Source of the DNA: Escherichia phage vB_EcoM_Lh1B
DNA: 64,000 bases
Direction: 5' to 3' (one strand)
Sequence record: OK428535.1
Shown here: one piece after another, positions 10,819 through 46,861 of the stretch
How the letters are laid out: every line of letters starts with the position of its first letter
How positions within the stretch are numbered: the first letter of the stretch is position 1
Position numbers and translations under genes: made by a program
Notes under the pieces: generated by a model
What the model was told of the DNA's origin: nothing
Databases searched by the model: none
Seen by the model: only the letters and a program-made list of their open reading frames with translations

Positions 10819-11418
10819 ATGATCTACAAGGTGATCGCCAACCACTTGATTAATGTGGACTTGGGGGTCGTGGGGTATCTTCCGGACGGTATGCGGTTTT
10901 TGGATTTGGTGGTTGACACCGTGGTCCGCCTACCGCGTATCACCGTGGAGATACCCGTAAAAGAATTGGACCAGGACGAGATACACGAACTTATACGTGA
11001 AACGCTGACTAGCTATACGTACGAGTTTCGCTGCATGTTGCCTCGCACCGACCTTACGTTCTTGCACGACTTCTTTACGTTACTGACTGACGAGTACCGT
11101 CGGTGGAAGTTTAATGTTGCAATGGAAGCCAGCACTGAGTCACATTTTAACGGGCTGACACCATTGTTAGATTTAGCGTTGGTGTACAAAGAGCAAGACA
11201 GTTCACACTGGGCTACGCTCAAGCACTACACGTTGGATCTAATGGCGACCGCCGTAACGGAGGCAGTTATGGCGCATTATGTTGAGCCGGTGAAGATGTT
11301 CTTAGAGGCGCATAATGGCGCTATCCGTACGTTGGTTCTCAAGGTGGACTTCCCGAAAACACCAGTGACCAATGCTTTGGATATGAGGCTGCTTATTGAT
11401 GTTCCTGAGGAGGAATAA
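10819..11418 (+). CDS. hypothetical protein
   Basis: 199-aa ORF behind conserved TTAAGGAGTA site. Confidence 0.55.
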   Translation: MIYKVIANHLINVDLGVVGYLPDGMRFLDLVVDTVVRLPRITVEIPVKELDQDEIHELIRETLTSYTYEFRCMLPRTDLTFLHDFFTLLTDEYRRWKFNVAMEASTESHFNGLTPLLDLALVYKEQDSSHWATLKHYTLDLMATAVTEAVMAHYVEPVKMFLEAHNGAIRTLVLKVDFPKTPVTNALDMRLLIDVPEEE

Positions 11419-11828
11419 TGTTCGATTTACGCACACTGGTCGCTGGGCAAAAAGTTAACATTGTTTACGACACCCCTTTGAAAGGGCAAGAGACGCGTGT
11501 AATTATTCTGGCAACCGGCGTTGGCTACGAGATGGCCAAAAGTTATATGGATGTGATGGCGGAGCAGAAGAATATCTACTCGTCCATCGTTTCCCAGCCA
11601 GAAGATAATGTGAACAAATACACGTATCTGATTTTCAAAGGTGTTGACGGCAAACCAAAAGTCGCTGCCGATGCCTGGATTCGTGATGTTCAGATTATCG
11701 AAAACACGAAGGTGCGCTTCACCGTCACCCTGGATAACAAACAGGAGATTGACGACCTTAAACGCGCCCTGGCTGCCAATGGTTTCAATGACGTCGATTT
11801 TGAAATCGTTGAGAGTATTGCCGGTTAA
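11418..11828 (+). CDS. hypothetical protein
   Basis: TAATG overlap, GAGGAGG upstream. Confidence 0.55.
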   Translation: MFDLRTLVAGQKVNIVYDTPLKGQETRVIILATGVGYEMAKSYMDVMAEQKNIYSSIVSQPEDNVNKYTYLIFKGVDGKPKVAADAWIRDVQIIENTKVRFTVTLDNKQEIDDLKRALAANGFNDVDFEIVESIAG

Positions 11829-11834
11829 AGTAAG

Positions 11835-11871
11835 CCCACACTTCGGAGTGGGTTATTTTTTTTTCTTTTTT
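11835..11871 (+). terminator. rho-independent terminator
   Basis: Hairpin CCCACAC-TTCGG-AGTGGG then TTTTTTTTTCTTTTTT. Confidence 0.7.
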
Positions 11872-11919: not shown

Positions 11920-14211
11920 ATGGACTACAATTCACCATTTCGTCTTAGTCAAGACGAGTATCATCGCGACATTGACGTTATCGATGCGTACTACGAACAA
12001 CTGGCGCTCTACATTCATACCGTCACCAACGGGAAATATTCTTTGGAGTTCTGTCGACAGCAGGTCGAAGAAATGTTCCAACCTGGTGGTGAGTTAGTAC
12101 ACGAATTCCCCGTGTGTAAGATGTGGGTGCGCAATCAAAAGACCGGCGATCGCGAAGAAAAATACACCACGGTAGATAAACTGTTCCGTACAGTGATTGA
12201 TAAGCAGATTATCTCTGCACCGTCGCTGACCTTTTATCTGCCTGAGCACGTCAAGCGCTCTAAGCTTGCTGAATTTACCGCAGAGAACGTGCGTAAGCGT
12301 GCGGTTGTTAAGAAAGAGATGTACGCAGCAGGTGCTGCGGGTAATGAAGTTCTGCGTATTAACAAAAAGAACGAACAGAACGCTGTTAAGACGTTGAACA
12401 ACGGGATGTCGGGTGCATTCTCATCACCGTACACGGTAATCTTTAACCAGTCTTCGCACTCTGTATTGACGTCAACCTGCCGTACGGCTACATCGTTCGG
12501 TAACGCGGGCAACGAACGTCTACTGGGCGGTAATCGTCACTACGACACGCCGTCCCGTGTTATCGACCACTTACTGTCTATTGGTACACTGACTAACTTT
12601 GCGGAGTTCAAGAAGTGTATGGAACTCTATAACCTCCACTACCCAACAGTGGACGAGGTTATGGAAGTGGTTATGTACTCTGCAGAGTTTTACTTCCGTA
12701 ACGACGAAGGGCTGGAGTTCATTCGTCACTACGTCGGTAATTGTAGCCCGCTGGTACGTGCAGCGTTTGTCTACATGGGTGACTTCTACCACCTGGCGAA
12801 ATACAACGATGAATTCATGCGCGGATTTATCGGTGCGCTGATTGCCGAGGAGATGGAAGACGAGATCACCGATTGGGATGCTGCTGAGCGCTCTATCGAC
12901 GGTGACATGCAGATCATTATCTCGCAGTTCCGTACTGATATCGTGCCGTTAGGTAAGTCGTTCTCTGACGTTAAACTCAAAGACGAAAACACGAACAAAG
13001 CGGAACCGTGGGATAAGCAGGAAAAATACAAAGAGCTGATTCGCTCAGCTGTGTATCTGCAGAAAACCATCGGTAAGTACGCGTGCTTGATTCGTAATAT
13101 CCTGACTACCAAAAACCTGCCGATTAACATTGCCAGGATGCCTGACGTGGTTCGTCGTGTCGGTGTGGTATCTGATACCGACTCCACGATGATGACTGCA
13201 CAGTGGTGGGCACAGTGGTATACCGGTCAACATTACGGTCGTGAAGCTACGCGCGTATCGGATGCGATGATTTATATTGCAACCCAGCACTTACGTCATC
13301 TGATGGCGAGCATGTCGGCGAACATTGGCGTGGCGAAAGAGCGTCTGTTTTTGTACGCAATGAAGAACGAATTTAAGTTCGACTCCTTTGCGTTAACCAC
13401 AAAAGCAAAACACTACTTCTCCATCATCACTGGCCAGGAAGGACAATTGAAGTCCGACCCTGAGTTAGAAGTTAAAGGTGTGTCTTTACGTACGTCGAAC
13501 ATACCGCCTGTGGTCATGAAAGAGTTCAAACGCACGATTAAAGAACTCTGTGAGATTGTAGCGCGCGGCGATAAGATTAAGATTCTGCCTCTGCTGGAAA
13601 AGGTTGCTGCAATTGAGCACGTTGTGGTGGACTCTATTCGTGCTGGTAAAGCAGGCTACCTGAAAACAACCAACGTCAAAGACCGTAGTGCGTACTCTGA
13701 AGATGATGAAAAGAGCTACCACTACCACCGCATGTACAACGCCATCTTTGGACCGAAGTACGGCTACCTGGACGAACCGCCTTATGACGCCGTGAAACTT
13801 CCGGTAAACCTGGAGAACAAAACAGCCGTTAAAGAGTGGCTGGAAAACATTAAAGACCCGATGATTAAGACCACTGCAACACGGTGGTTCGAAGAGAACA
13901 ACTATCGCACCTATCGTACTCTGATACTGCCAGAGTTCTTGGTGGAAAACTTCGGTATTCCTCCGGAGCTGATTGATGCTGCAGACACACGTCGAAGCGC
14001 ATTCTCCACAGTAGAACCTTACTATCACATCCTGGAATGTCTGGGTGTGTTCATGATGGACAAGAATAGAACTCGTCTGCTTTCGGATTACTACGGCGAG
14101 TCCGTAGACTCCGTCAAGGAAGAATTAGGTAGCGGCGAGTACGTTAAGAAATCTGAACGTGATGGAGAGGAAGAAGATGGGGAAGAAGATGGGGAAGAAG
14201 CGGAGGAGTAA
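11920..14211 (+). CDS. large protein; candidate polymerase-domain half of a split family-B DNA polymerase (tentative)
   Basis: 763-aa ORF; SDTDS (nt 13171..13185, motif C-like), motif B-like helix ~45 aa upstream (KELIRSAVYLQKTIG), KAKHY (KKRY-like) ~75 aa downstream; acidic C-terminal tail. Confidence 0.55.
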   Translation: MDYNSPFRLSQDEYHRDIDVIDAYYEQLALYIHTVTNGKYSLEFCRQQVEEMFQPGGELVHEFPVCKMWVRNQKTGDREEKYTTVDKLFRTVIDKQIISAPSLTFYLPEHVKRSKLAEFTAENVRKRAVVKKEMYAAGAAGNEVLRINKKNEQNAVKTLNNGMSGAFSSPYTVIFNQSSHSVLTSTCRTATSFGNAGNERLLGGNRHYDTPSRVIDHLLSIGTLTNFAEFKKCMELYNLHYPTVDEVMEVVMYSAEFYFRNDEGLEFIRHYVGNCSPLVRAAFVYMGDFYHLAKYNDEFMRGFIGALIAEEMEDEITDWDAAERSIDGDMQIIISQFRTDIVPLGKSFSDVKLKDENTNKAEPWDKQEKYKELIRSAVYLQKTIGKYACLIRNILTTKNLPINIARMPDVVRRVGVVSDTDSTMMTAQWWAQWYTGQHYGREATRVSDAMIYIATQHLRHLMASMSANIGVAKERLFLYAMKNEFKFDSFALTTKAKHYFSIITGQEGQLKSDPELEVKGVSLRTSNIPPVVMKEFKRTIKELCEIVARGDKIKILPLLEKVAAIEHVVVDSIRAGKAGYLKTTNVKDRSAYSEDDEKSYHYHRMYNAIFGPKYGYLDEPPYDAVKLPVNLENKTAVKEWLENIKDPMIKTTATRWFEENNYRTYRTLILPEFLVENFGIPPELIDAADTRRSAFSTVEPYYHILECLGVFMMDKNRTRLLSDYYGESVDSVKEELGSGEYVKKSERDGEEEDGEEDGEEAEE

Positions 14212-16805: not shown

Positions 16806-18659
16806 ATGGTAAAAATCGTTGACTCTAACAACAACGCTCAGCAGAACAACACTCAGACTCAAGACACCGCACCACTGGGCGGTCTGGGCAACGAGACTGT
16901 AAAAGTGCAAACTGCTGTGCCGGGTACTTCTACTGTCAGCCAATTCGATAACGCATTTGGCATCCGCAACATCAGCACCTATGCAATGCACTTCGTCAAC
17001 CTCCTGGACGAGCTGAAGAAAAGCAACGAATACCTCAACGCTTTCCGCTGGGGCACCATCGCCGGCGTGGGTAACGAAATGGGTTCCGCGGCGTATGTCG
17101 CAGGCCAATGGCAGGGCCACTGGCTGTATGGTATCATCTTCTTTGAACGCGGTCAGTCTCTGCGTCTGAAAGAAACTACCAACAACGGCCAGGAAGACTA
17201 CTACACCATCACTGAACTGTTCAACAAAGACGTGCTGGCAGTAGTACAGAAAAACATCATGGAAGCGCATGGTCTGACCAATGCGAACTTCATGATCATC
17301 AACTCCGTACCAGACCTGGGTAAAGTTCTGGATGCTGAGTGGGCACGTACTCTGATGGGTCAGATGATGATGGGCATCTTCGGTCGTATCGCAGGCTACC
17401 TGGGTACGCTGAACCTGCGTAAGCATGACCGTTATCAGGCTGCAGTAATGCCGCTGGAAGATGGTGCGGTTGTGGATGCTAACGGCCACGCACAACGTGC
17501 TGATTTCGCAATCACCGTTGAGCACAGCCCAAGCAACGTATCCGACGCCACTCCGACTCTGCTGGACACCAATCAGGTACAGGTGTATCCGCGTGTATCC
17601 GGTACTGGTTTCGTCAACATGCGTTTCACCGGTCAGAAGCCTGTCGTTAACGGCGTCTACGACCTGAAACAGCTGCAGGCTGAAATCGTAGTAAGTCTGG
17701 TCGATTCTCAAACTGAAGGTGCAATGGCACCGTATGAACGTCAACTGCTGCTGCTGGCTGCATTTGCAGAAATCGCGGCAATCGGTGGCTGGCGTGACCT
17801 GTTTGTGAAACGTCTGAACAAACAAGATCGCAAGTTCTCCCGTGTGGCAGAATACCTGTCCTGGGGTGCTGACGCTCGTCCTGATGTATCCAAAATCGAC
17901 GGTAGCCGTGAAGCTATCGAAGGTTGCCTGGATATGTTCGCACCGCGTGAAGCAGCACTGGTAGTTAGCCATCGTGCCGGTAACGGTCTGGGTGGTCTGT
18001 CTACTATGCTGTCTGAAATTGCGGTCGGTTACGACAACTCTCTGAAACAGCTGCTCGCTATTCTGAATTCCATGTCCCCGCGTGATCAGAACGGCGAAGT
18101 TGTTGCAGCGACCAGCTTCACTGCAGTATTTGCTTCTGCACTGAAAGCACAGCTGGGCGATGCCTTCAATGGTACCATCCATTGCAGCCACATCGTGAAA
18201 GCAGCCGTACCGACTGTTTCCGGTGTTTACACCGGTACTGCACAGAAACGTAGCTTCCAGGATATGGACCTGATTTCCGTTGTTACCAAACTGGGTGATA
18301 ACGCGAACGACGTCTATAGCTACCTGAACGCACAGTCCTACAGCCACCGTGAACTGAACGAGCGTCAACAGCGTATCTACATGCTGAAACTGGCCGCTTC
18401 TCTGTTCGCATCCAAAGCACCGCAAGCTACCGGTGAATCTCTGGATATGGCTATCAACCCGATCTTCGGTAAATGCCTGCTGGACTTCGTCCGTAACAAC
18501 TGCACCTGGTCTATGACTGGTGTAAATGCCTACAACACGATGGCGACCTCTCTGTTCTTCAACAACGGTGGGGAAGACTTCACGCTGTCTGGCAACGGCC
18601 TGTCTGCAAGCGGTTCCGATTTCGGTCTGGGCGTGTCTCTGAGCAACTTCAAACTGTAA
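16806..18659 (+). CDS. abundant early protein; candidate phage-nucleus shell (chimallin-like) or major structural protein
   Basis: 617-aa ORF with strongly E. coli-optimal codons (CTG, CGT, GGT, AAC, ATC, TTC), unlike neighbours; TAAGGAA site; two upstream promoter-like motifs; next to RNAP beta-prime-like gene. Confidence 0.7.
   Translation: MVKIVDSNNNAQQNNTQTQDTAPLGGLGNETVKVQTAVPGTSTVSQFDNAFGIRNISTYAMHFVNLLDELKKSNEYLNAFRWGTIAGVGNEMGSAAYVAGQWQGHWLYGIIFFERGQSLRLKETTNNGQEDYYTITELFNKDVLAVVQKNIMEAHGLTNANFMIINSVPDLGKVLDAEWARTLMGQMMMGIFGRIAGYLGTLNLRKHDRYQAAVMPLEDGAVVDANGHAQRADFAITVEHSPSNVSDATPTLLDTNQVQVYPRVSGTGFVNMRFTGQKPVVNGVYDLKQLQAEIVVSLVDSQTEGAMAPYERQLLLLAAFAEIAAIGGWRDLFVKRLNKQDRKFSRVAEYLSWGADARPDVSKIDGSREAIEGCLDMFAPREAALVVSHRAGNGLGGLSTMLSEIAVGYDNSLKQLLAILNSMSPRDQNGEVVAATSFTAVFASALKAQLGDAFNGTIHCSHIVKAAVPTVSGVYTGTAQKRSFQDMDLISVVTKLGDNANDVYSYLNAQSYSHRELNERQQRIYMLKLAASLFASKAPQATGESLDMAINPIFGKCLLDFVRNNCTWSMTGVNAYNTMATSLFFNNGGEDFTLSGNGLSASGSDFGLGVSLSNFKL
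17676..17733 (+). repeat. copy A of ~58-bp direct repeat (inside CDS 16806..18659)
   Basis: caggctgaaatcgtagtaagtctggtcgattctcaaactgaaggtgcaatggcaccg; about 90 percent identical to 18677..18732. Confidence 0.8.
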
Positions 18660-32643: not shown

Positions 32644-34748
32644 TGGCGGGTCGTTCTGTACACGTGCGTGATTTGCGTATGCTTAACTCTGATCAGGTGT
32701 GGAAACTACGCGGGCGTTATTACGTGACATTCGACGATGGTAAGTCGTTGGAAATGTCTAGTCGCCACATCAAACTCAGCTGGCCGTATTGGGGTGTGTC
32801 GCGTCTGTATCCGCAGGTGCCCACTCCATCGACCATGGCGTATCGTCCAGGTCAGGTAGCAACAGATGACCTGCATCTGGACTTTATGTCGGAAGCAGCG
32901 GTACTGGCCCGTAAAGCAGGTGTCGACCTTGCTGAAACGCGTTATATCCTGAGTCAACATGTCTACGCCGATGCGTTCAACATGACAGTGAAGAACTTGC
33001 TGTCGTATTGTACGACAATCGACTTTGACACGATGATGGAGATCTACGACCACCCGAACTTCGAACTCATCCGTCAGTGGGAAGTGCAATACCCTACTGG
33101 CTACGATGAAGATGGTCAGGATATGGTTGAAGAAGCGTACAAGCTTATCGAGAAAATCTTCAAAGACCCTGCGCTACGGTATAACCCGGTCGTGATGTCG
33201 GTACTGGACGGTACTGTGAAGATGAACCAGGTACTGCAAGCCTTCGTGCGTGGTAAAACGTCAGAAATTGACTCACGTGTATACACCAATCAGGTGTGGG
33301 AAGGCTTCTTTACCGGAATGCACTCGGTTATTTCGCGTTTGAAAGAATCCGGTGCAACATCACGTTCCCACTTGTACAACACTGACAAGATTGCCGAAGC
33401 AGAATACGCCTCACGTAAACTGCAGCTGGCAGCAAACGTACTGATGTATTTCACGTACGACGACTGCGGTACAACTCACGCACACCGCTACACGTTTAAG
33501 GATACGCAGCTGGATGAGCGTGCCTATAAAGCGATGGTGGGGATGCGTTATCGTTTAGAAGGCGATAATGGTCCGTGGTTGAGATTTGAGAAAGGTGGAT
33601 ACGCAGACCTGGTTGGTAAACCGCTGGTCTTCCGTAGTGCAATGACCTGTAAAGAGATGGCGAATCAGTCCATCTGTGCGACCTGCATGGGGGATTTGAT
33701 TTATAACCTCTCTGAAGGCACGTCACCGGGTCACCTGGCATCCACTTCCATCTCAGAAAAGGGTACACAGGGAATTCTCTCCACCAAGCACCTTGACTTC
33801 TTGCGTTATCTGCTCAACCTGGTACTCACGCCGAGAATGCGTGAGTACATGACCGAATACAAACATAACTCTCTGAAAGGGTTGTGCTTGCTACCAAAAC
33901 CACAGCGTGGTAATTGGTCAGAATACGAGTTGGTCGTTACCGACAAAGTTTATTCGGAGCTGAGCCAGATTGCGTATCATGAAGATCTCGATGCAATCGA
34001 TGAAACAGCATTGCCGGAAATCACCGACTTGACATTCCAGCGTCGTTTAGAAGATGGGCAAATCATCGCTGCAGATTCTATCGATGTGCGAATGGGTGTT
34101 TGTGGGAACTTCTCTAAACCGTTCTTGCATTACTTCTTGAAACAACGTGCGAACATTCGTATCGAGAAGAAGACGGTTCAGATTCCTTTGAAAGGATGGA
34201 ACCCGAAACACCCGGTACTGGTCTACACCAACCGTTCTGAATCGATGGCAGAATTCGTGGCAGGGTTAGAAACCAAGCTACGTTCAATCGCAGCCGATAA
34301 GAACGAAGACATTGTGGAAATCATCAACACAGCCTCGACTGTGAAGTTGAACAAGAAACAAGGTCGTGTGAAACCGGTAACGTTGGTTGAAATGGGTGGT
34401 GCTACAGAGAAACAGTGTACTTATGCGTTGATGGATACGTTTAAGTACATCCAGCGTAAGCTGAGCGGTATACCGATGACGCACATTGCGATTATGTTGG
34501 CGATATCTCGTGTAGAGTCACCAACCAATCCGTTCCCGGCAGTAGGATTTGACAGTGAGGATTCTACTAATGCCACCGGGAAACGGTTTGTCGATCACAA
34601 CACGCTCATTAGTTTGCGCTCGGCAATTCCGATGTTGTTGTTTGAAGGACAGCAGGGGAATATCGATCGCGTTGGTTTTTATACCGAGTACAAAATCCCG
34701 GCATCGTTGTACGATGACCTAGGAGCCGCTGTGGTAATTGAGTTGTAA
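32643..34748 (+). CDS. multisubunit RNA polymerase beta-prime-like subunit (C-terminal portion)
   Basis: CATCMGDL (cf. CAHCYGRDL) and trigger-loop-like TSISEKGTQGILSTKH (cf. QSIGEPGTQLTMRTFH); TAATG coupling to beta-like gene. Confidence 0.65.
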   Translation: MAGRSVHVRDLRMLNSDQVWKLRGRYYVTFDDGKSLEMSSRHIKLSWPYWGVSRLYPQVPTPSTMAYRPGQVATDDLHLDFMSEAAVLARKAGVDLAETRYILSQHVYADAFNMTVKNLLSYCTTIDFDTMMEIYDHPNFELIRQWEVQYPTGYDEDGQDMVEEAYKLIEKIFKDPALRYNPVVMSVLDGTVKMNQVLQAFVRGKTSEIDSRVYTNQVWEGFFTGMHSVISRLKESGATSRSHLYNTDKIAEAEYASRKLQLAANVLMYFTYDDCGTTHAHRYTFKDTQLDERAYKAMVGMRYRLEGDNGPWLRFEKGGYADLVGKPLVFRSAMTCKEMANQSICATCMGDLIYNLSEGTSPGHLASTSISEKGTQGILSTKHLDFLRYLLNLVLTPRMREYMTEYKHNSLKGLCLLPKPQRGNWSEYELVVTDKVYSELSQIAYHEDLDAIDETALPEITDLTFQRRLEDGQIIAADSIDVRMGVCGNFSKPFLHYFLKQRANIRIEKKTVQIPLKGWNPKHPVLVYTNRSESMAEFVAGLETKLRSIAADKNEDIVEIINTASTVKLNKKQGRVKPVTLVEMGGATEKQCTYALMDTFKYIQRKLSGIPMTHIAIMLAISRVESPTNPFPAVGFDSEDSTNATGKRFVDHNTLISLRSAIPMLLFEGQQGNIDRVGFYTEYKIPASLYDDLGAAVVIEL

Positions 34749-34751
34749 ACC

Positions 34752-34778
34752 GAGGGGCCTTGCGCCCCTCTTTTTTTG
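34752..34778 (+). terminator. rho-independent terminator
   Basis: Hairpin GAGGGGC-CTTG-CGCCCCTC then TTTTTTT. Confidence 0.7.
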
Positions 34779-34794
34779 GGCGAAGAGGGGCAGC

Positions 34795-37539
34795 ATGGTA
34801 GAAATTCAAATGACTTACACGAGTATGGGGGTACGGGTTGAAGTCCCCATCCGCCAGGCTGAAAGGGCCATACTCGCGTGGGCCGAAGAGAATATGCACG
34901 CCCCAAAGATGGGCAAGCAACATGGACGAATAACCACGGAACGCGGCGATGCGTACTACGCCCACATTCCGTCTTTAAGGACATTCATTTTCCATAAAGT
35001 GTTCGCTGAGAAGATTAAACATATCCTCCAACGGGCAGCAATTGAATACGCTTTTCAGTACAAGCTTACAGAGCACCATCCTGAACGAGGAACACCTTAC
35101 AGCTGTACATTTGATAACTACGGTTTCTCGATGGTAGAAAGCGATCCGGAGTCGCGGTTCTATTATCAGAACGAGGTTGTGGATGCAGCATCCGATCCAA
35201 ACCGACCACAGACAATCTTTGCCATTCAGACAGGGAGAGGAAAATGCTGTGCTCATGGTACGCGTGTGCGTGTACCGGGTGGTTGGAAGAACATTGAGGA
35301 TATACAGCTAGGTGATTACGTTACGGGGCGTGACGGAAAACCAGCAATGGTCTCTGGAGTGTTCCCACAGGGTGTGGTTGACCTGTATCAGGTGACGTTT
35401 TGGGATGGTAGGAGTGTTGACGTATGTGGCGAGCACTTGTGGCAAAGCTACTACGTTAATACCACCGAGAATCGTCGCTGGGGTGTACGTGATACCCTAG
35501 AGATGAAACGTTTAATTTCGATGCCTAATCCACGGGTATACATCCCATTACCAGAACCAGAGGAAATGCCAGCTAAGGATTTTGTCATTCATCCGTATTT
35601 ACTCGGTATCCTCTTGGGTGATGGCTCCCTATCGATGCCTGGTGTTTTATACACCAAAGGCGATGTGGAGATTCGTGACCGTGTTGCTGAGGTCATGCCC
35701 GCTGGACATGCAATCCATGATTCATCGTACAGCGATGGGATAACGAAGTGCATCTCTTGTCCCGGCGGTGTTAACCTTGTCCGCAGAGAGCTTGAGCGGT
35801 TAGGGTTAATTGGCTGCAGGTCTTGGGAAAAGTTCATACCTGGAGATTACTTCGAAACGTCCATCGAACAACGGTGGGAGTTGTTGCGTGGCTTGATGGA
35901 TACTGACGGTACTGTGGATAAGGATGGTGGTACGCCTTCTTTCTGTTCCACCAGTAAAGAATTGGCTTTAGGTGTTCAGGAACTTGTGCGGTCTTTAGGA
36001 GGGATTGCAACACTACGCGAGAAACGTCCGTTCTTCACACACAACGGCGAACGTCGTGAAGGTCGTTTGGCTTATAACGTCTCCATCCGCCACAAAACAC
36101 CATCGAAACTGTTCCACCTTCCAAGGAAGAAAGAACTGTGTCGTGATAACGGACAATACACCGATATACTGAAACTCCGTGTTAAGTCTATCGAACCCAT
36201 TGGTCGTGATCTTGCCACGTGTATTCGTGTCGAGAACGACGATGCGTTGTTTGTGGTGGACAAGTGGATCGTTACGCACAACACCAAGACCTGTATGAAG
36301 TCGATGGTTAAACGGGGAACCCGTACCGCATTGATTCACCGTCCGTCATACGTTCCCAAATGGCTGTTTGACGTCTGTGATGATGAAACAGGACTTCGTA
36401 TACTTCGTGACGAGGTGTTAGTTTGTACAGGCGTACAGGCGATTTACGACGCACTGGAGATGGGTAAGTCGGGAGAGCTAGATAGACGCGGTATTAAGGT
36501 AATAATCCTCCCCACGGTCTCTCTACAGCGTTTCCTGAAGGAGTACATTAACACTGCTGCGACTAACCCTGTGGACCTGGATACGTTTTATGATGTTCTG
36601 GGTGTGGGTCTGGTGGCGATGGATGAGGTGCACGAGCATTTTCACCTCGTTTACATGGCTGGTATAATGTTGAACCCGCCGGCATCGATAGAGATGTCTG
36701 CAACTCTTAAACCGGGTAGCAGTAAAGCCTTTATCGCGGAGCGGTATTTAGAACGTTTCCCAATGGAGTACCGAATCAGTATTCCAATCATTCCGGTGGT
36801 TGACGTGAAAGCGTTGTACTATCGACTGGATGATAAGAAGTTCGCGTGGTGGGCGTCGAAGATGACGCCGTATAACCACAAACTCTTCGAAGGGAAGCTG
36901 ATTAAAGAGAACTTGCATTTAGAATACGCGAACATGATCTGGGATGTGGTTGAGAAATCGTTCCTTAAACGGTATCAACCCGGCCAGAAGTGTTTGCTGC
37001 TATTTGCCACGGTTGCAATGTGTGAGTTCTTTACCGAGTATGTGAAAGATAAGTTATCGCGTGACCCTGTATTCCATCCACTGATGGTGGCGAAATATAA
37101 TGCAGGCGATTCGTATGACGACTTTATCCAAGCAGACTTCTCTATCTCCACACCGGGGAAAGCGGGGACTGCGGTCGATAAACCTGGGTTGGTGCACATG
37201 TACATTTCAACCCCGGTAGAAGACCAGCAACTGAACGAACAGATGGCCGGTCGTCCACGTAAGATTCTCCACAACGAGTGGGGTGAAATAGACCCAACGG
37301 TGTGGTTATTCCATGCGTATAACGTACCGAAGCATTGCAATTACTTGAATGCCCGCCAGAAATCACTCAAGGATGTCGTATTGTCGTTCCGTATCGCGAC
37401 ATCCCCCTACGTTGTAAGGAAATCACATGCTCACTCCGCCGCGTCCAGCAGAGCCACTGCCGCCCTACATCGGAATGACTTTAGCAAGTTTTCTCGAAAA
37501 CATTCTAAAGGCGTATCCCGGCGTAGAAGACGTCGCTAA
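34795..37539 (+). CDS. DExH-box SF2 helicase interrupted by an intein
   Basis: Extein motifs: I AIQTGRGK|T (split by intein), II VAMDEVHEH, III SAT, VI QMAGRPRK; start at ATG 34795 after GAGGGG; 3' end uncertain (overlaps ORF 37427). Confidence 0.75.
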   Translation: MVEIQMTYTSMGVRVEVPIRQAERAILAWAEENMHAPKMGKQHGRITTERGDAYYAHIPSLRTFIFHKVFAEKIKHILQRAAIEYAFQYKLTEHHPERGTPYSCTFDNYGFSMVESDPESRFYYQNEVVDAASDPNRPQTIFAIQTGRGKCCAHGTRVRVPGGWKNIEDIQLGDYVTGRDGKPAMVSGVFPQGVVDLYQVTFWDGRSVDVCGEHLWQSYYVNTTENRRWGVRDTLEMKRLISMPNPRVYIPLPEPEEMPAKDFVIHPYLLGILLGDGSLSMPGVLYTKGDVEIRDRVAEVMPAGHAIHDSSYSDGITKCISCPGGVNLVRRELERLGLIGCRSWEKFIPGDYFETSIEQRWELLRGLMDTDGTVDKDGGTPSFCSTSKELALGVQELVRSLGGIATLREKRPFFTHNGERREGRLAYNVSIRHKTPSKLFHLPRKKELCRDNGQYTDILKLRVKSIEPIGRDLATCIRVENDDALFVVDKWIVTHNTKTCMKSMVKRGTRTALIHRPSYVPKWLFDVCDDETGLRILRDEVLVCTGVQAIYDALEMGKSGELDRRGIKVIILPTVSLQRFLKEYINTAATNPVDLDTFYDVLGVGLVAMDEVHEHFHLVYMAGIMLNPPASIEMSATLKPGSSKAFIAERYLERFPMEYRISIPIIPVVDVKALYYRLDDKKFAWWASKMTPYNHKLFEGKLIKENLHLEYANMIWDVVEKSFLKRYQPGQKCLLLFATVAMCEFFTEYVKDKLSRDPVFHPLMVAKYNAGDSYDDFIQADFSISTPGKAGTAVDKPGLVHMYISTPVEDQQLNEQMAGRPRKILHNEWGEIDPTVWLFHAYNVPKHCNYLNARQKSLKDVVLSFRIATSPYVVRKSHAHSAASSRATAALHRNDFSKFSRKHSKGVSRRRRRR
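35245..36282 (+). mobile_element. intein with LAGLIDADG homing-endonuclease domain, inserted in helicase P-loop
   Basis: Starts with Cys directly after the Walker-A lysine (CCAHGTRVRV...), ends ...VVDKWIVTHN followed by Thr; two LAGLIDADG motifs (YLLGILLGDGS, ELLRGLMDTDGTV); 346 aa. Confidence 0.75.
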
Positions 37540-38491: not shown

Positions 38492-40454
38492 GATCCAAGA
38501 TCAGCGTCCGGGTAATGCCCGTCNCCCTAATCCCGATCAGCCAGCCCCTGTGGCGGCTGCTACCCAACAAGAGATGATTCTTCCGACCGTGCCTGATGAC
38601 GCGAATCCGGATGCAATCATCATGNCTATTAAACANNNNNACCCCNATTTTNNTTTTGCCCGTGCAGAAGAAGTTTATCACCAACATTATCATCAGCCGG
38701 AGCCTAAGCTCGAGCGTCCGACGTTTGTAGAAGAAGCTTTGCCCGAACCTGCTGCACCGGTACAGCCTGTATCCCAGACCTTCTCTGAACAGGTGCATGA
38801 GCATATTCATCACACCCCAGAACCGGNGGNAGAGAAANCGCCNGNGGNANAACCNNCNCCCCNNCNAAAAACNCCGGNNGGGGGNGNCCCNNNNAACCCG
38901 GGGNNAAAAAAAAAGNAAAACNCNNCNCCNAAGGTTCCGGAANAANAACAGGNCCNNGNGANTNACTTNGGTAANACCCATTTAGCTGAAACCGCCGAAA
39001 TGGGTGAAGATGAAGCTGATCGTATCCTGACACAGTCGAAGATGTTGATTGGTCTGAAACAAGACCCTAACATCATTGCAGACTCTCTGCAAAAGTTCCT
39101 CGGTAACATTAAACGTTCACCGAAAGACGGTCGGCTGCTGTTCGAAAGCCCTGAACAACAACAGGTTTACGACGACATCTATCGTGCTTTGAACATGACA
39201 CCGCCACGTCTACAGGACGGCGTACCGGCATTCGCTGGTGCACTGGACCGTGGTGACACCGCTTGGGAACAGCGTGTGATGTTGCCGGACGGTAAGGCAT
39301 CTGGTGCTATTGCACCGCGTGACAATATGCACACTGGCGCGCTGGCTGCTTTGCGTCGTGTACGTAAGTCGGGTATTCCGAACATGGTTTGGCTGCCGGC
39401 CACAGGTATCTACGTGNGCTTCCNCGCACCACATGAACGCGACCTTTGTGACTTCGACATGCGTCTAACACTGGAAACTGCGACCATCGGTATGCAGACC
39501 TACGGATTGATGCTGTCGTCGTCTTCTGGCGTGTACATGCGTCACATGGTTGAATTCGCACTTCAGTTTGTTACCGAAGCAACCATCGATTGTGCAGGTA
39601 ACGATCTGCGTACGGTGCTGTTGGATACCATTGATCTGGCTGACTACTGGCTGGTTATTCTGGGTCCGTTGCAGGCGAAGTGGCCGTCTGGTATTCCATG
39701 GACGCTGATGTGTGGCGAAGACGGTTGCACTCAGCAGGAAGATGTGAAGCTGAATATCGCACGTTGTATCCGTTTTGGTTCCGGTCTGTTTAGCGACCTG
39801 CAGAAANAACNGTGGGNACGTCAGCGCGGTACTGAGCGTCCAGTGATTTCTATTGCTGAACAGCGCGAATATATCGCGGCGCATCAGGTTGACCCATCCT
39901 CGGTATTTGAATACCACGACGTGCGTGTTGAATTTGGCCGTTCTACCCTGGGTAGCTTCTTTGACTCCACCGAGAAGTGGATTGAAGACGTTAACGCGTC
40001 AACTACGGCAGCGCTGTCTGAATTTGCTACCGAGCGTGAACGTGAATCCCATATGCGTTTAACTGCGGAAGCCCGTCGCTTAACGCGCTACGCTCACATG
40101 GTGAAATCTATCACTGTTAATGAGCAACGTGAAGTAAACGGTGAAATGCAGGTTATCCCACAAACTGAAACCGACACAGCGAAAATCGTTGAGATGCTGG
40201 AAGAGCTGTCTTCCGACCGTATCTACGTTGGTCAGTTTGAAAACGCGATTGCTGAATACAACGAACGTACACGTTTAGCGGTATTCGGTTACATGGGTAA
40301 ACGCTGCCCGGCGTGCGGTAAAACACACGGCGAGAAAGACGGTCTGTATCGCGGTATTGTTACCATCTCACCGGACAGGGTTTTTTTCGTGCTCTCTCGA
40401 GTGGTGTCCGAGATTCAGAAATTCTTGCTGGATCAATACGCCGATATTGGCTAG
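38484..40454 (+). CDS. hypothetical protein; Pro/Glu/Lys-rich low-complexity N-region, C-terminal CPACG zinc-ribbon-like motif
   Basis: 656-aa ORF; frame through 38521..38990 is provisional because of many N calls. Confidence 0.45.
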   Translation: MSEIQDQRPGNARXPNPDQPAPVAAATQQEMILPTVPDDANPDAIIMXIKXXXPXFXFARAEEVYHQHYHQPEPKLERPTFVEEALPEPAAPVQPVSQTFSEQVHEHIHHTPEPXXEKXXXXXXXPXXKXPXGXXXXNPGXKKKXNXXXKVPEXXQXXXXXXGXTHLAETAEMGEDEADRILTQSKMLIGLKQDPNIIADSLQKFLGNIKRSPKDGRLLFESPEQQQVYDDIYRALNMTPPRLQDGVPAFAGALDRGDTAWEQRVMLPDGKASGAIAPRDNMHTGALAALRRVRKSGIPNMVWLPATGIYVXFXAPHERDLCDFDMRLTLETATIGMQTYGLMLSSSSGVYMRHMVEFALQFVTEATIDCAGNDLRTVLLDTIDLADYWLVILGPLQAKWPSGIPWTLMCGEDGCTQQEDVKLNIARCIRFGSGLFSDLQKXXWXRQRGTERPVISIAEQREYIAAHQVDPSSVFEYHDVRVEFGRSTLGSFFDSTEKWIEDVNASTTAALSEFATERERESHMRLTAEARRLTRYAHMVKSITVNEQREVNGEMQVIPQTETDTAKIVEMLEELSSDRIYVGQFENAIAEYNERTRLAVFGYMGKRCPACGKTHGEKDGLYRGIVTISPDRVFFVLSRVVSEIQKFLLDQYADIG

Positions 40455-43653: not shown

Positions 43654-45438
43654 TTAGAACCCGCAGATGTACTCCATAGGCTCTGTCACTACTTCCCCTT
43701 GCTTACGTAAGAACGTAGACAGGACAGTGTCTTTGTCCGGTAAGCAGAAGAAGTCTGTCGCTATTTCCATGGCATTAACTCGCCCAGCAGTTAAGTTGAC
43801 GCCCGTGCGACGTCGAATCTCTTCACTAACCCCATTGATGGACAGTAGTTCGATGAGTGTGGTCTCACGAGATTGGTTCATCATGTTTGTGGCCGAAGGG
43901 TAGGCCTGGGTTAAGTCCGCATCCGCAGTTTGTCCACGGAACGCAGAGTAATATTCGTCAATCTCCTCCAGAATGTTATTCAGACCGTTCTCAGCATTCA
44001 TACATGCTGTCAGGGTAACAATCCAACCGTCTGTACCGATAACCTCTTCATCGTAATCGTTACGCATTGCAGACCCTACGGAACCGATGACGTATCCTTT
44101 GTCATACAGATAATAGGTAAAGGCCACGCAGATACGTTTTGGTAGCGACGGGAAGATATCGTACATCGAGAAACCTGCCAGAATGGATATTGCCGAAGAC
44201 AAGTCGTTCGTTTTCTTATCCAACAACACGATTAACAAGTTATCCATCATGTTGTATACGGCATATTCGGCAGGGTAGTCCCGTTGTGCTTTTATGTGCC
44301 ATTGCAGGTTATCTTCATACGGCAGTCCAGGAATGTCGAGTTTGTGTAAACCGAGTTCGGTGTACAGTATGGCAGATAACTTGTACGAAGGACGTTGCCC
44401 TTCGTGGACACGCAACGAACGGAATAACACCATGGCATCCACACAGTAGAAAGACGCAGTACAGTAGAGTACGTGCCACTGTTGTGACGGTGCTTTGGTG
44501 AGTGACTTGGATTCCGTCTTTTTGTTCGCCTGGTCTTCTTTAAACCACAGACGACGGTATTTCTCCGGCACATCCGGATGGTTAAAGACGCCCAGTGGAT
44601 CGATACCTTCTTTCTGCAAGGTTTCCAACATGCGTGAAATATCGAACTGGTGGTTCCATGCGACCAGCAAATCAGGAAGACGCGGATGAATCTCTTCGAA
44701 CATCCTGACGATGCACTGCCCTGCCGTAGCGCAGGTATAGGTGAAGATTTTATAACCNCTGATAATGTCTTTGGTCTTTGTCNCCTTTTCGCCGGTCTTT
44801 TTGTCTTTNTCNTCGNATTCGNTTTTGNTTAAGAGTTCCTGCGCTTTTTTGANAATGACTTCTTCCGCGTTTTTACCGATGCGGTCCATGTAGTTCTTAG
44901 CACCAAAGAAATGGATTTCGTCGTCTAAGATAAATGACACGATCCACGGTTCCTTCGTGCCGTCCATTTCGTTGGTCTCCACGTCGTATACGCAAAGACG
45001 GTTAGGGCTGATGTTGTTCGGCCAGCGCTTTAAATATTTCTGTTTAATCCAGCTGGTAATCGGTAAGTCGGCCCAATAAACGTACGGGCTAGTACAGACA
45101 CGACGCAGGTTCTTTTTCGGGTCAGGGAAACGTGCACCTAAACCCATCTGCAACGTCTTCGCCATCTGCGCATCAGTAGTCCAGAGTTCTTGACATTTTC
45201 CTTTTTCTTCGAACTCTTTTTTCTCCTGGTGGTTACGATATTCTTCACGGGTAACGTACACCGGACGCTTTAAATTCTCACGCATTACCAAGCGCGGGAT
45301 AAGCCTGCCATCCTTAGTATGGATGACCTCTTTGATGAGGACAAAGTCATTTTCTTTTTCTTCGTCCGTCGCATAAGCGACGTGTTTGCACTCTTTAGCG
45401 ATGACATCCTCGGGTGCGTAATAGGTATTGATTTCCAT
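43654..45438 (-). CDS. family-B DNA polymerase, N-terminal fragment (3'-5' exonuclease domain plus motif A)
   Basis: Exo I YDVETN, Exo II WNHQFD, Exo III YNMMD with typical spacing; motif A DLTQAYPS (cf. T4/RB69 DLTSLYPS); ORF ends ~85 aa after motif A; some N calls. Confidence 0.65.
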   Translation of the reverse strand: MEINTYYAPEDVIAKECKHVAYATDEEKENDFVLIKEVIHTKDGRLIPRLVMRENLKRPVYVTREEYRNHQEKKEFEEKGKCQELWTTDAQMAKTLQMGLGARFPDPKKNLRRVCTSPYVYWADLPITSWIKQKYLKRWPNNISPNRLCVYDVETNEMDGTKEPWIVSFILDDEIHFFGAKNYMDRIGKNAEEVIXKKAQELLXKXEXXXKDKKTGEKXTKTKDIIXGYKIFTYTCATAGQCIVRMFEEIHPRLPDLLVAWNHQFDISRMLETLQKEGIDPLGVFNHPDVPEKYRRLWFKEDQANKKTESKSLTKAPSQQWHVLYCTASFYCVDAMVLFRSLRVHEGQRPSYKLSAILYTELGLHKLDIPGLPYEDNLQWHIKAQRDYPAEYAVYNMMDNLLIVLLDKKTNDLSSAISILAGFSMYDIFPSLPKRICVAFTYYLYDKGYVIGSVGSAMRNDYDEEVIGTDGWIVTLTACMNAENGLNNILEEIDEYYSAFRGQTADADLTQAYPSATNMMNQSRETTLIELLSINGVSEEIRRRTGVNLTAGRVNAMEIATDFFCLPDKDTVLSTFLRKQGEVVTEPMEYICGF

Positions 45439-45508: not shown

Positions 45509-46861
45509 ATGGGACACNGGNAAAANNANANAANCCCNTTGGCNNNCGNNAAANCCGNGGCCNCNGAANCCNNNGNNTTCNAAAAAAAAAAAAAANNCCC
45601 CTNTTTGGNGGNAGNGGNANGNANGTTNCGTGNTGCGGGNGACTTCTCGCCAGNGGGTTATCAGAGTTCTGGTATTGCTGCCTGGGTCTTTGACAACAAC
45701 GGTATTACAGTCCTGCCTCGTAACGGGTCCGACTTAGGTGTGGCGGACGTTGTGTTTGCGGGTGTGGAGCCGCCGAAGCTCGATGCGAACAACCCAATCA
45801 TCGCCGACCTGCAACGCAAGATGGTGCAGGGTAACACCGACCTGGATGTCTACAGTAAGTTCTTAAAAGAGAACGAACTGAACGGCGAGTTCGACGATAA
45901 AAATGCGAAGCTTTCAGGCGAACTCAGCAAGGTGCCGTCCCCACTTTGGCTGACCCCGAAACTACTGACCAGTATCGACTTAACGGATTTAGAAGTCGCG
46001 GCGATTATTCTACATGAAGTCGGCCACGTCTATTACTATTTCCGTACCTTGATGCGTACGGTGGTAACGAACCTGATTGCGGATGCTGCAGCGAACCGCA
46101 TGATGCAAACCGAAGACCCGACAGTGCGTTTGAAAGTCGTAAAAGACGTTGAACGTATGCTGAACACCAAAGTGAATCAGCCGGAAACTATCTGCAAAGA
46201 GATGTCTAAAGAGAACATCTACATGCATCTGGTGACGGACATTCTGCTTGAGCGTCCATTTGTTACCGGTTCGGAAGGGTTCGCTAACCGTACCTGGGAA
46301 CGTGCTGCAGATGACTTCGCAGCTCGCTTTGGTGCAGCCCCGTACCTGGCGTCAGCCCTGTACAAAATCGAAACGTCCCAATTCTATCTCTGCCGGAACG
46401 CGTCGTACATGAACTACGGTGTGCATCTGATGCTGGAAATGCTTAACGTTTCGCTGCTGATTGTGGCTTCGACTAATCCAGTTGGCCTGTTCTTCACGAC
46501 TATCTCGGTGGCGTTCGGTCTGATTGTGAACGACCCACGCAACACCATCTACGATCCGCCGCAGGAACGTTTTGAGACGATGCGTCGTAACTTAGTGGAA
46601 GAGCTGAACACCTTAAAAGGTAGCACCACGAAAGAAGCGAACGAACATCGTAAACGTATTCTGCAGGGCATTGCGTCTATCGACGAATTACTGAAAACCG
46701 TGAAAGACAAAGACAACGTCTTTAGCTTCATCATGAAAACGCTGACCCCTGGCGGTCGCCGTGAGCGCGCTGGTGTGGATTATCAGCGTACGATGGAGCG
46801 NTATCTTTCTAATGACCTGCGTGTGGCTTCATCAAAGCTAAGCCGGGCTACCGTTTCTTAA
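45509..46861 (+). CDS. M48-like (HtpX/Ste24-type) zinc metalloprotease candidate with C-terminal hydrophobic segments
   Basis: HEVGH ~95 aa before ERAADDFAA (ExxADxxA third-ligand motif); hydrophobic stretch LLIVASTNPVGLFFTTISVAFGLIV; true start uncertain because N calls fill 45518..45653. Confidence 0.5.
   Translation: MGHXXXXXXXLXXXKXXAXEXXXFXKKKKXPXLXXXXXXXRXAXDFSPXGYQSSGIAAWVFDNNGITVLPRNGSDLGVADVVFAGVEPPKLDANNPIIADLQRKMVQGNTDLDVYSKFLKENELNGEFDDKNAKLSGELSKVPSPLWLTPKLLTSIDLTDLEVAAIILHEVGHVYYYFRTLMRTVVTNLIADAAANRMMQTEDPTVRLKVVKDVERMLNTKVNQPETICKEMSKENIYMHLVTDILLERPFVTGSEGFANRTWERAADDFAARFGAAPYLASALYKIETSQFYLCRNASYMNYGVHLMLEMLNVSLLIVASTNPVGLFFTTISVAFGLIVNDPRNTIYDPPQERFETMRRNLVEELNTLKGSTTKEANEHRKRILQGIASIDELLKTVKDKDNVFSFIMKTLTPGGRRERAGVDYQRTMEXYLSNDLRVASSKLSRATVS

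Follow-up and report, generated by a model that had tools for sequence, protein, structure and literature searches.

Does the 763-amino-acid (aa) open reading frame (ORF) at positions 11920..14211 (+ strand) of a 64,000-nucleotide stretch of Escherichia phage vB_EcoM_Lh1B (record OK428535.1; hereafter the window) encode a whole DNA polymerase, or one half of an enzyme completed by another gene? An original prediction, made from the letters alone, had tentatively proposed the latter, a trans-encoded half of a B-family polymerase, and had pointed to an exonuclease ORF about 30 kb away on the opposite strand. Both ORFs are where they were proposed to be: the first opens with an ATG, and the second, of 594 aa, occupies 43654..45438 (-), at a distance of 29.4 kb. 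We conclude that the 763-aa protein is the C-terminal, polymerase-domain subunit of the replicative family B DNA polymerase (PolB) of an SPN3US-like jumbo phage (Seoulvirus, chimallin-encoding), and that the two polypeptides are very probably one enzyme whose active site is completed across their interface.

Identity and motifs of the polymerase half

The DNA of the ORF is 99% identical to that of SPN3US-group jumbo phages of the genus Seoulvirus. Its coordinates are those of its counterpart in Escherichia phage EC001, which makes the window the first 64 kb of a genome of this kind. An AAGGGG resembling a Shine-Dalgarno sequence lies 6 nt 5' of its ATG. Its protein is the ortholog of SPN3US gp18, for which RefSeq (YP_009153312.1) gives the label 'DNA polymerase'; the partner in SPN3US (YP_009153338.1) is likewise labelled 'DNA polymerase'. 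The match to Pfam PF20286, 'Divergent Family B DNA polymerase' (divDNApol), runs end to end, with aa 11-725 of the ORF covering positions 3-705 of the 705-position profile. At 944.6 bits against a cut-off of 25.7 bits (E=4.2e-284), the score is far beyond chance. PHROG 2927, 'DNA polymerase', is matched as well. The modelled protein has the palm, fingers and thumb of a PolB, and 365 of its ~725 residues superpose on the RB69 enzyme. Thus the Pfam family, PHROGs and fold all bear out a trans-encoded B-family polymerase half, in agreement with the published annotation, and the palm similarity on which the original prediction had staked itself is present. Single-sequence phmmer searches of the PDB with either half gave nothing meaningful.

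Annotation of this gene in the databases is inconsistent. Most SPN3US-group records label it 'hypothetical protein'. EC001 (MN445185) carries two features beneath it at 11921..14211, and in SPLA5c (L001, 4153..6279) it has been started at an internal methionine, Met52, giving 708 aa. Three residues upstream of that annotated start (F7, Y14 and R16) are invariant across the family.

The layout of the protein follows from the secondary structure of an AlphaFold2 (AF2) model combined with HMMER and hhalign alignments, and conservation was read from an alignment of 65 homologs reaching down to 34% identity. An alpha/beta piece of the palm preceding the fingers (aa 1-95) is followed by the fingers and the subsequent palm helix (aa 96-205), in which H180-E199 is the best-conserved stretch of the protein. 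A family-specific helical insert, the palm core (aa 401-530) and the thumb (aa 530-725) complete the domain. The polymerase module therefore spans the whole protein and is not limited to residues 350-763, as had been suggested; the N-terminal ~350 aa, previously left unexplained, are accounted for by the pre-finger segment, the fingers and most of the insert.

Two of the three catalytic elements that had been picked out by eye stand up well. VVSDTDS (aa 416-422) does contain motif C: the five residues S418-D419-T420-D421-S422 (13171..13185, +) are invariant and sit on a beta hairpin formed by strands 415-418 and 422-425 of the model, making D419 and D421 the predicted catalytic metal-binding aspartates. 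TTKAKHYF (aa 493-500) is indeed the KKRY-like element. Its K497-H498-Y499 (13408..13416, +) is invariant and corresponds to K706-R707-Y708 of RB69, which contact the primer terminus, a correspondence found both by a HMMER match to RB69 706-755 and by the hhalign alignment of gp18 465-569 with RB69 670-771.

The assignment of motif B to KELIRSAVYLQK, on the other hand, was wrong, as this is an unconserved stretch inside the helical insert. Not one residue of KELIRSAVYLQKTIG (aa 371-385) is conserved among the homologs, so that the distances quoted from it are accurate (45 aa to VVSDTDS, and 77 aa from there to TTKAKHYF) but are not measured from motif B. The true motif B, K157-T-L-N160-N161-G-M-S164-G165 (aa 157-165; 12388..12414, +), belongs to the second finger helix, where it lies in the context QNAVK157TLN160N161GMS164G165AF on helix 143-168. 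K157, N160, N161, S164 and G165 are invariant. An hmmsearch matches the segment to the finger helix that carries motif B in Pol zeta/delta (E=0.004), and hhalign pairs K157, N161, S164 and G165 with K560, N564, Y567 and G568 of RB69; the canonical KxxxNSxYG pattern is thus found on a finger helix with a single deviation, of tyrosine to serine. What the 763-aa protein does not contain is motif A (DxxSLYPS), as no Asp or Glu upstream of motif B is invariant in the 65 homologs.

The insert (~195 aa, aa ~206-400; 12535..13119, +) is multi-helical; it follows the palm helix that comes after the fingers and precedes the motif C hairpin. A long multi-helical insert before the second strand of the RNA recognition motif (RRM) fold was described by Iyer et al. 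2021 (PMC7824862). Because it has invariant residues of its own (R206 H207 Y208, P242, Y285, D288 and N296) and because aa 200-310 are modelled with the highest confidence in the polymerase half (predicted local distance difference test, pLDDT, 94-98), it is no passive spacer. Searched alone against PDB sequences, it found no relative.

The acidic tail DGEEEDGEEDGEE, noted but left unexplained by the original prediction, does lie at the C-terminus (aa 726-763; 14095..14208, +). It is disordered (pLDDT <50 for aa 751-763) and unconserved in sequence (conservation 0.07-0.10). A survey of tails in 86 homologs confined it to the Seoulvirus-like clade, where its length is 24-42 aa, of which 10-22 are acidic; many of the more distant homologs stop 2-9 aa past the last conserved motif. 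At 14161..14208 (+) the tail of the window reads DGEEEDGEEDGEEAEE, compared to DGEEEDGEEAEE in P0001, the representative of the same 90%-identity cluster, which is a 100% match apart from the tail. The difference is one extra DGEE repeat in the window, a 12-nt repeat-length polymorphism.

The partner gene and the position of the break

The 594-aa partner (43654..45438, -) is the ortholog of SPN3US gp44 and matches PHROG 3011, 'DNA polymerase'. In hhalign its family profile forms one continuous alignment with the profile of T4/RB69-type gp43 (probability 98.8%, E=1.2e-16), spanning partner aa 120-532 and RB69 82-435. The partner has a PolB N-terminal domain and a DEDD 3'-5' exonuclease. The alignment takes in Exo I (D152/E154), then Exo II (D266) and Exo III (Y395/D399), and past Exo III it extends into polymerase motif A, ADADLTQAYPSATNMMNQSRETT. 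The motif, D506-A-D508-L-T-Q-A-Y513-P514-S, aligns with D411-LTSL-Y416-P-S of RB69, in which Y416 is the steric gate, and D506, D508, Y513 and P514 are invariant in 57 partner homologs. Calling the partner an exonuclease fragment was correct as far as it went, but incomplete, as the protein also carries this motif.

With motif A on the partner and no invariant acid ahead of motif B in the polymerase half, the gene break maps inside the palm, at RB69 ~435-455, and is predicted to separate motif A from motif B. Residues of both polypeptides therefore probably make up the polymerase active site. With motif A supplied in trans, it is the pair, and not the 763-aa ORF alone, that fits the definition of family B. 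Around 150 extra conserved residues flank the break (partner aa 533-594 and polymerase-half aa 1-95). Pfam found no intein match in either half, the intein motifs at the two termini not having been inspected directly.

We infer that the two proteins associate physically and act in replication, with a division of labor that can be proposed residue by residue. The 763-aa subunit would provide the finger helix that binds the deoxynucleoside triphosphate (dNTP), through K157, N160/N161, S164 and G165, together with the motif C hairpin (D419, D421), the KxY element, the thumb and the clade-defining insert. The partner would provide the motif A strand at its C-terminus, with the catalytic aspartate D508 and the steric-gate tyrosine Y513, and would also bring the PolB N-terminal domain and the proofreading exonuclease. 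A site composed in this way would join D508 and Y513 of the partner to D419/D421, K157, N161 and K497/Y499 of the 763-aa protein. Both this interface and the composite site are probable readings of the alignments. We favor, with more reserve, a fuller version of the model: the break would lie inside the palm such that neither polypeptide is a polymerase alone, the ~150 flanking residues would form a heterodimerization module, and the insert, together with the small SH3-fold protein encoded directly upstream (SH3DP), would complete a holoenzyme independent of a clamp.

The distribution of the two genes is what one enzyme would predict. By tblastn the polymerase half is present in 300 phage records and the exonuclease half in 295, and the genus counts agree exactly for Pseudomonas (81/81), Erwinia (62/62), Vibrio (23/23), Serratia (21/21), Aeromonas (20/20), Klebsiella (16/16) and Ralstonia (13/13). 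The halves are separate genes and are far apart where both positions are listed, as in phiKZ (40.6 and 78.0 kb). An exhaustive profile search for the polymerase half returned 1483 representative clusters. None of the top 150 has a fused exonuclease, since all are ~700-780 aa long and their match begins at about residue 1. In the complete SPN3US genome (~240 kb) each half-profile finds exactly one ORF, the T4-type PolB profile matches the partner alone, and the DTDS pattern and the motif B pattern each occur in the polymerase-half ORF only. There is no other PolB ORF in that genome, and hence no different ORF bearing motifs B and C, the second finding that was to have undone the original prediction. 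The homology, the fold, the positions of the motifs, the strict co-occurrence and the lack of another PolB can be taken as shown.

Several individual records deserve comment. A coding sequence annotated 'polymerase' (PHROG 2943; L012 23754..25529, corresponding to SPN3US 73754..75532) was considered as a second DNA polymerase of SPN3US and rejected: it is a homolog of PHIKZ123 (E=3e-20), which is one of the chains in 7ogp, the solved structure of the non-virion RNA polymerase of phiKZ. The polymerase-half family has a single long outlier, the metagenomic homolog P0264 (967 aa). Its N-terminal extension is not a fused proofreading domain but a FEN/T4 RNase H-type 5'-3' exonuclease (PF02739 and PF09293) joined to divDNApol, a Pol I-like arrangement within PolB that fits a role in lagging-strand processing. 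Another homolog, P0350, has a C-terminal DUF4326. In about 10 SPFM records (GenBank LR535901-LR535917) the match of the exonuclease-half gene to the window is broken into 25-28 short pieces (coverage 84-94%, identity 99%) and its protein products look scrambled, which suggests problems of assembly or sequence quality.

Weighing the alternatives

A number of observations speak against joining the two proteins into one polymerase. Profile-profile similarity between the polymerase-half family and T4-type gp43 is weak (hhalign probability 24-28%): default settings align the KKRY region alone (24.5%), and relaxed settings align the finger and motif B region before the alignment derails at the insert. 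For this reason the assignment of the polymerase half relies on fold, Pfam and motifs. The serine of motif B, at the position of the canonical PolB tyrosine, is a departure from the family. As an isolated HMMER domain the partner's motif A scores ~0 bits, becoming convincing solely within the colinear hhalign alignment, and the last 140 aa of the partner, searched as a profile, have no match in the PDB at E<=10; as that profile retrieves nothing, it is the full colinear alignment and the invariance of the residues that argue for motif A. Iyer et al. 2021 (PMC7824862) regard the exonuclease as an independent, associated protein and apparently place RRM strand 1 in the polymerase protein. Finally, the searchable literature yielded no biochemical or structural data on this enzyme.

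It is conceivable that the 763-aa protein can polymerize DNA unaided and that the 594-aa protein is just a loosely associated, accessory proofreading exonuclease. The arrangement reads this way in Iyer et al. 2021 (PMC7824862), and the polymerase half folds confidently alone in AF2. We consider it unlikely, as gp18 would then have to work without an invariant Asp or Glu upstream of motif B. Moreover, the partner's invariant D508-xxxx-Y513-P514 falls on RB69 motif A within the highly significant gp43 alignment; the partner does not resemble a free DnaQ-type exonuclease, having a PolB N-terminal domain and early palm in addition to the exonuclease; and its C-terminal 130 aa are conserved yet disordered when alone.

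The enzyme might additionally be a primase-polymerase capable of starting chains de novo, a possibility raised by Iyer et al. 2021 (PMC7824862). This would explain why DnaG- and AEP-type primases are absent from phiKZ-like phages, and could give a task to a large conserved insert that has its own invariant residues (R206 H207 Y208, D288, N296) and no assigned function. Pfam, PHROGs and PDB searches nevertheless revealed no primase-like domain, the invariant steric-gate residue Y513 on the partner argues for dNTP selectivity, and the same authors propose the phage multisubunit RNA polymerase as an alternative source of primers. A priming activity therefore seems quite improbable. The idea that the protein, like the C-terminal half of Pol epsilon, is a catalytically dead PolB derivative serving a structural or regulatory purpose is hardly credible: the sequence is very divergent, and Kazlauskas et al. 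2020 place the PhiKZ cluster with divergent clusters including that inactive half, but D419, D421, K157, N161, K497 and Y499 are all invariant, and the 240-kb genome encodes no other DNA polymerase.

Neighboring genes and known split polymerases

The gene directly upstream of the polymerase half (11418..11828, +) encodes SH3DP, a protein of 136 aa that has a match of E=3.2e-35 to PF20287, 'SH3 fold domain associated with phage DNA polymerases'. A small SH3-fold gene upstream of the polymerase was noted by Iyer et al. 2021 (PMC7824862), and the order of the two genes is kept in L010, a relative with 36% identity. It is tempting to speculate that SH3DP may be an accessory or third subunit. Between the two genes, at 11833..11854 (+), is a terminator-like hairpin, AGCCCACACTTCGGAGTGGGTT, followed by T9, so the two may be transcribed separately even though their adjacency is conserved.

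Two genes downstream of the polymerase, a 617-aa ORF (16806..18659, +) matches PHROG 8316, of unknown function. The matching position in L010 holds chimallin (PF25677, 631 aa). We rejected the 617-aa ORF as a demonstrable chimallin, as BLASTP against the L010 protein gave E=0.53 and there was no Pfam match. Further along, a 933-aa DNA helicase (PHROG 16; 34738..37539, +) contains an intein with Hint and LAGLIDADG homing-endonuclease domains at aa ~170-453. At only 568 aa the SPN3US ortholog (33403..35109) appears to be intein-free, so this looks like a presence/absence polymorphism between phages that are 98% identical. Between 38524 and 63708 there are 133 isolated N bases in scattered clusters, including 50 in 38524-38975, 38 in 45518-45654 and 8 within the exonuclease-half gene at 44758-44853; they yield X residues in the translations and resemble sites that were masked, or were polymorphic, in a consensus assembly.

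The SPN3US gp18-type split polymerase is already known: it has been in the literature since ~2012, has its own Pfam family (PF20286), and is covered by published annotation. The group-1 jumbo-phage polymerase was described by Iyer et al. 2021 (PMC7824862), with the same SPN3US accession as their example, as a divergent PolB with a DxD hairpin and without a fused exonuclease, and Kazlauskas et al. 2020 listed a 'PhiKZ' cluster of divergent PolBs. The protein of the window is the same as SPN3US gp18, which pairs with gp44, and as the phiKZ-type divDNApol; it shares with them the upstream SH3DP and the distant partner. Nothing substantive differs from them, the extra DGEE repeat relative to P0001 aside. 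Our assignment of motif A to the partner is not spelled out in the papers accessible to us, and may already be published.

The closest solved relative is gp43 of T4/RB69, a single chain, whereas here two genes are ~29 kb apart on opposite strands. Compared with gp43, the jumbo-phage enzyme has an extra ~195-aa helical insert before motif C and ~150 extra residues around the break, and its fingers are much shorter than those of RB69. Motif B has serine for tyrosine, motif A has 'QA' in place of 'SL' and an extra invariant aspartate, D506, and no clamp-binding C-terminal peptide was identified. Archaeal split PolBs (PolB1 of Methanothermobacter and the split-intein PolB of Nanoarchaeum) are also encoded by two separated genes but belong to a different lineage, and the Nanoarchaeum halves are rejoined by trans-splicing. 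By analogy, that a split PolB can reassemble has been seen experimentally with gp43A/gp43B of Aeromonas phage 25, two polypeptides that purify together and have activity (Petrov et al. 2010, as summarized in PMC2988022). According to that summary, the cistrons of Aeromonas phages 25 and 44RR are adjacent, and what separates them is either a homing endonuclease gene or a short spacer that is not translated; the split there is recent and sporadic. In the jumbo phages, by contrast, the genes are dispersed and the split is found in every examined member of a large family.

In summary, a highly divergent split polymerase could be recognized from raw sequence alone, where annotation of the phiKZ enzyme took a decade. 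The corrected motif map (the true motif B, motif A on the partner, and the boundaries of the insert) names the exact residues for mutagenesis, and corrects records that label the gene hypothetical or start it at an internal methionine. As the papers accessible to us present the partner as an exonuclease in its own right, its wider role may be under-appreciated. If motif A does reside on this 'exonuclease' subunit, the polymerase would be an obligate heterodimer with a composite active site, and this is the only part of our analysis that may add to published work. The enzyme in question would be the sole DNA replicase of the nucleus-forming jumbo phages, a group of interest both for phage therapy and for the study of viral replication compartments.
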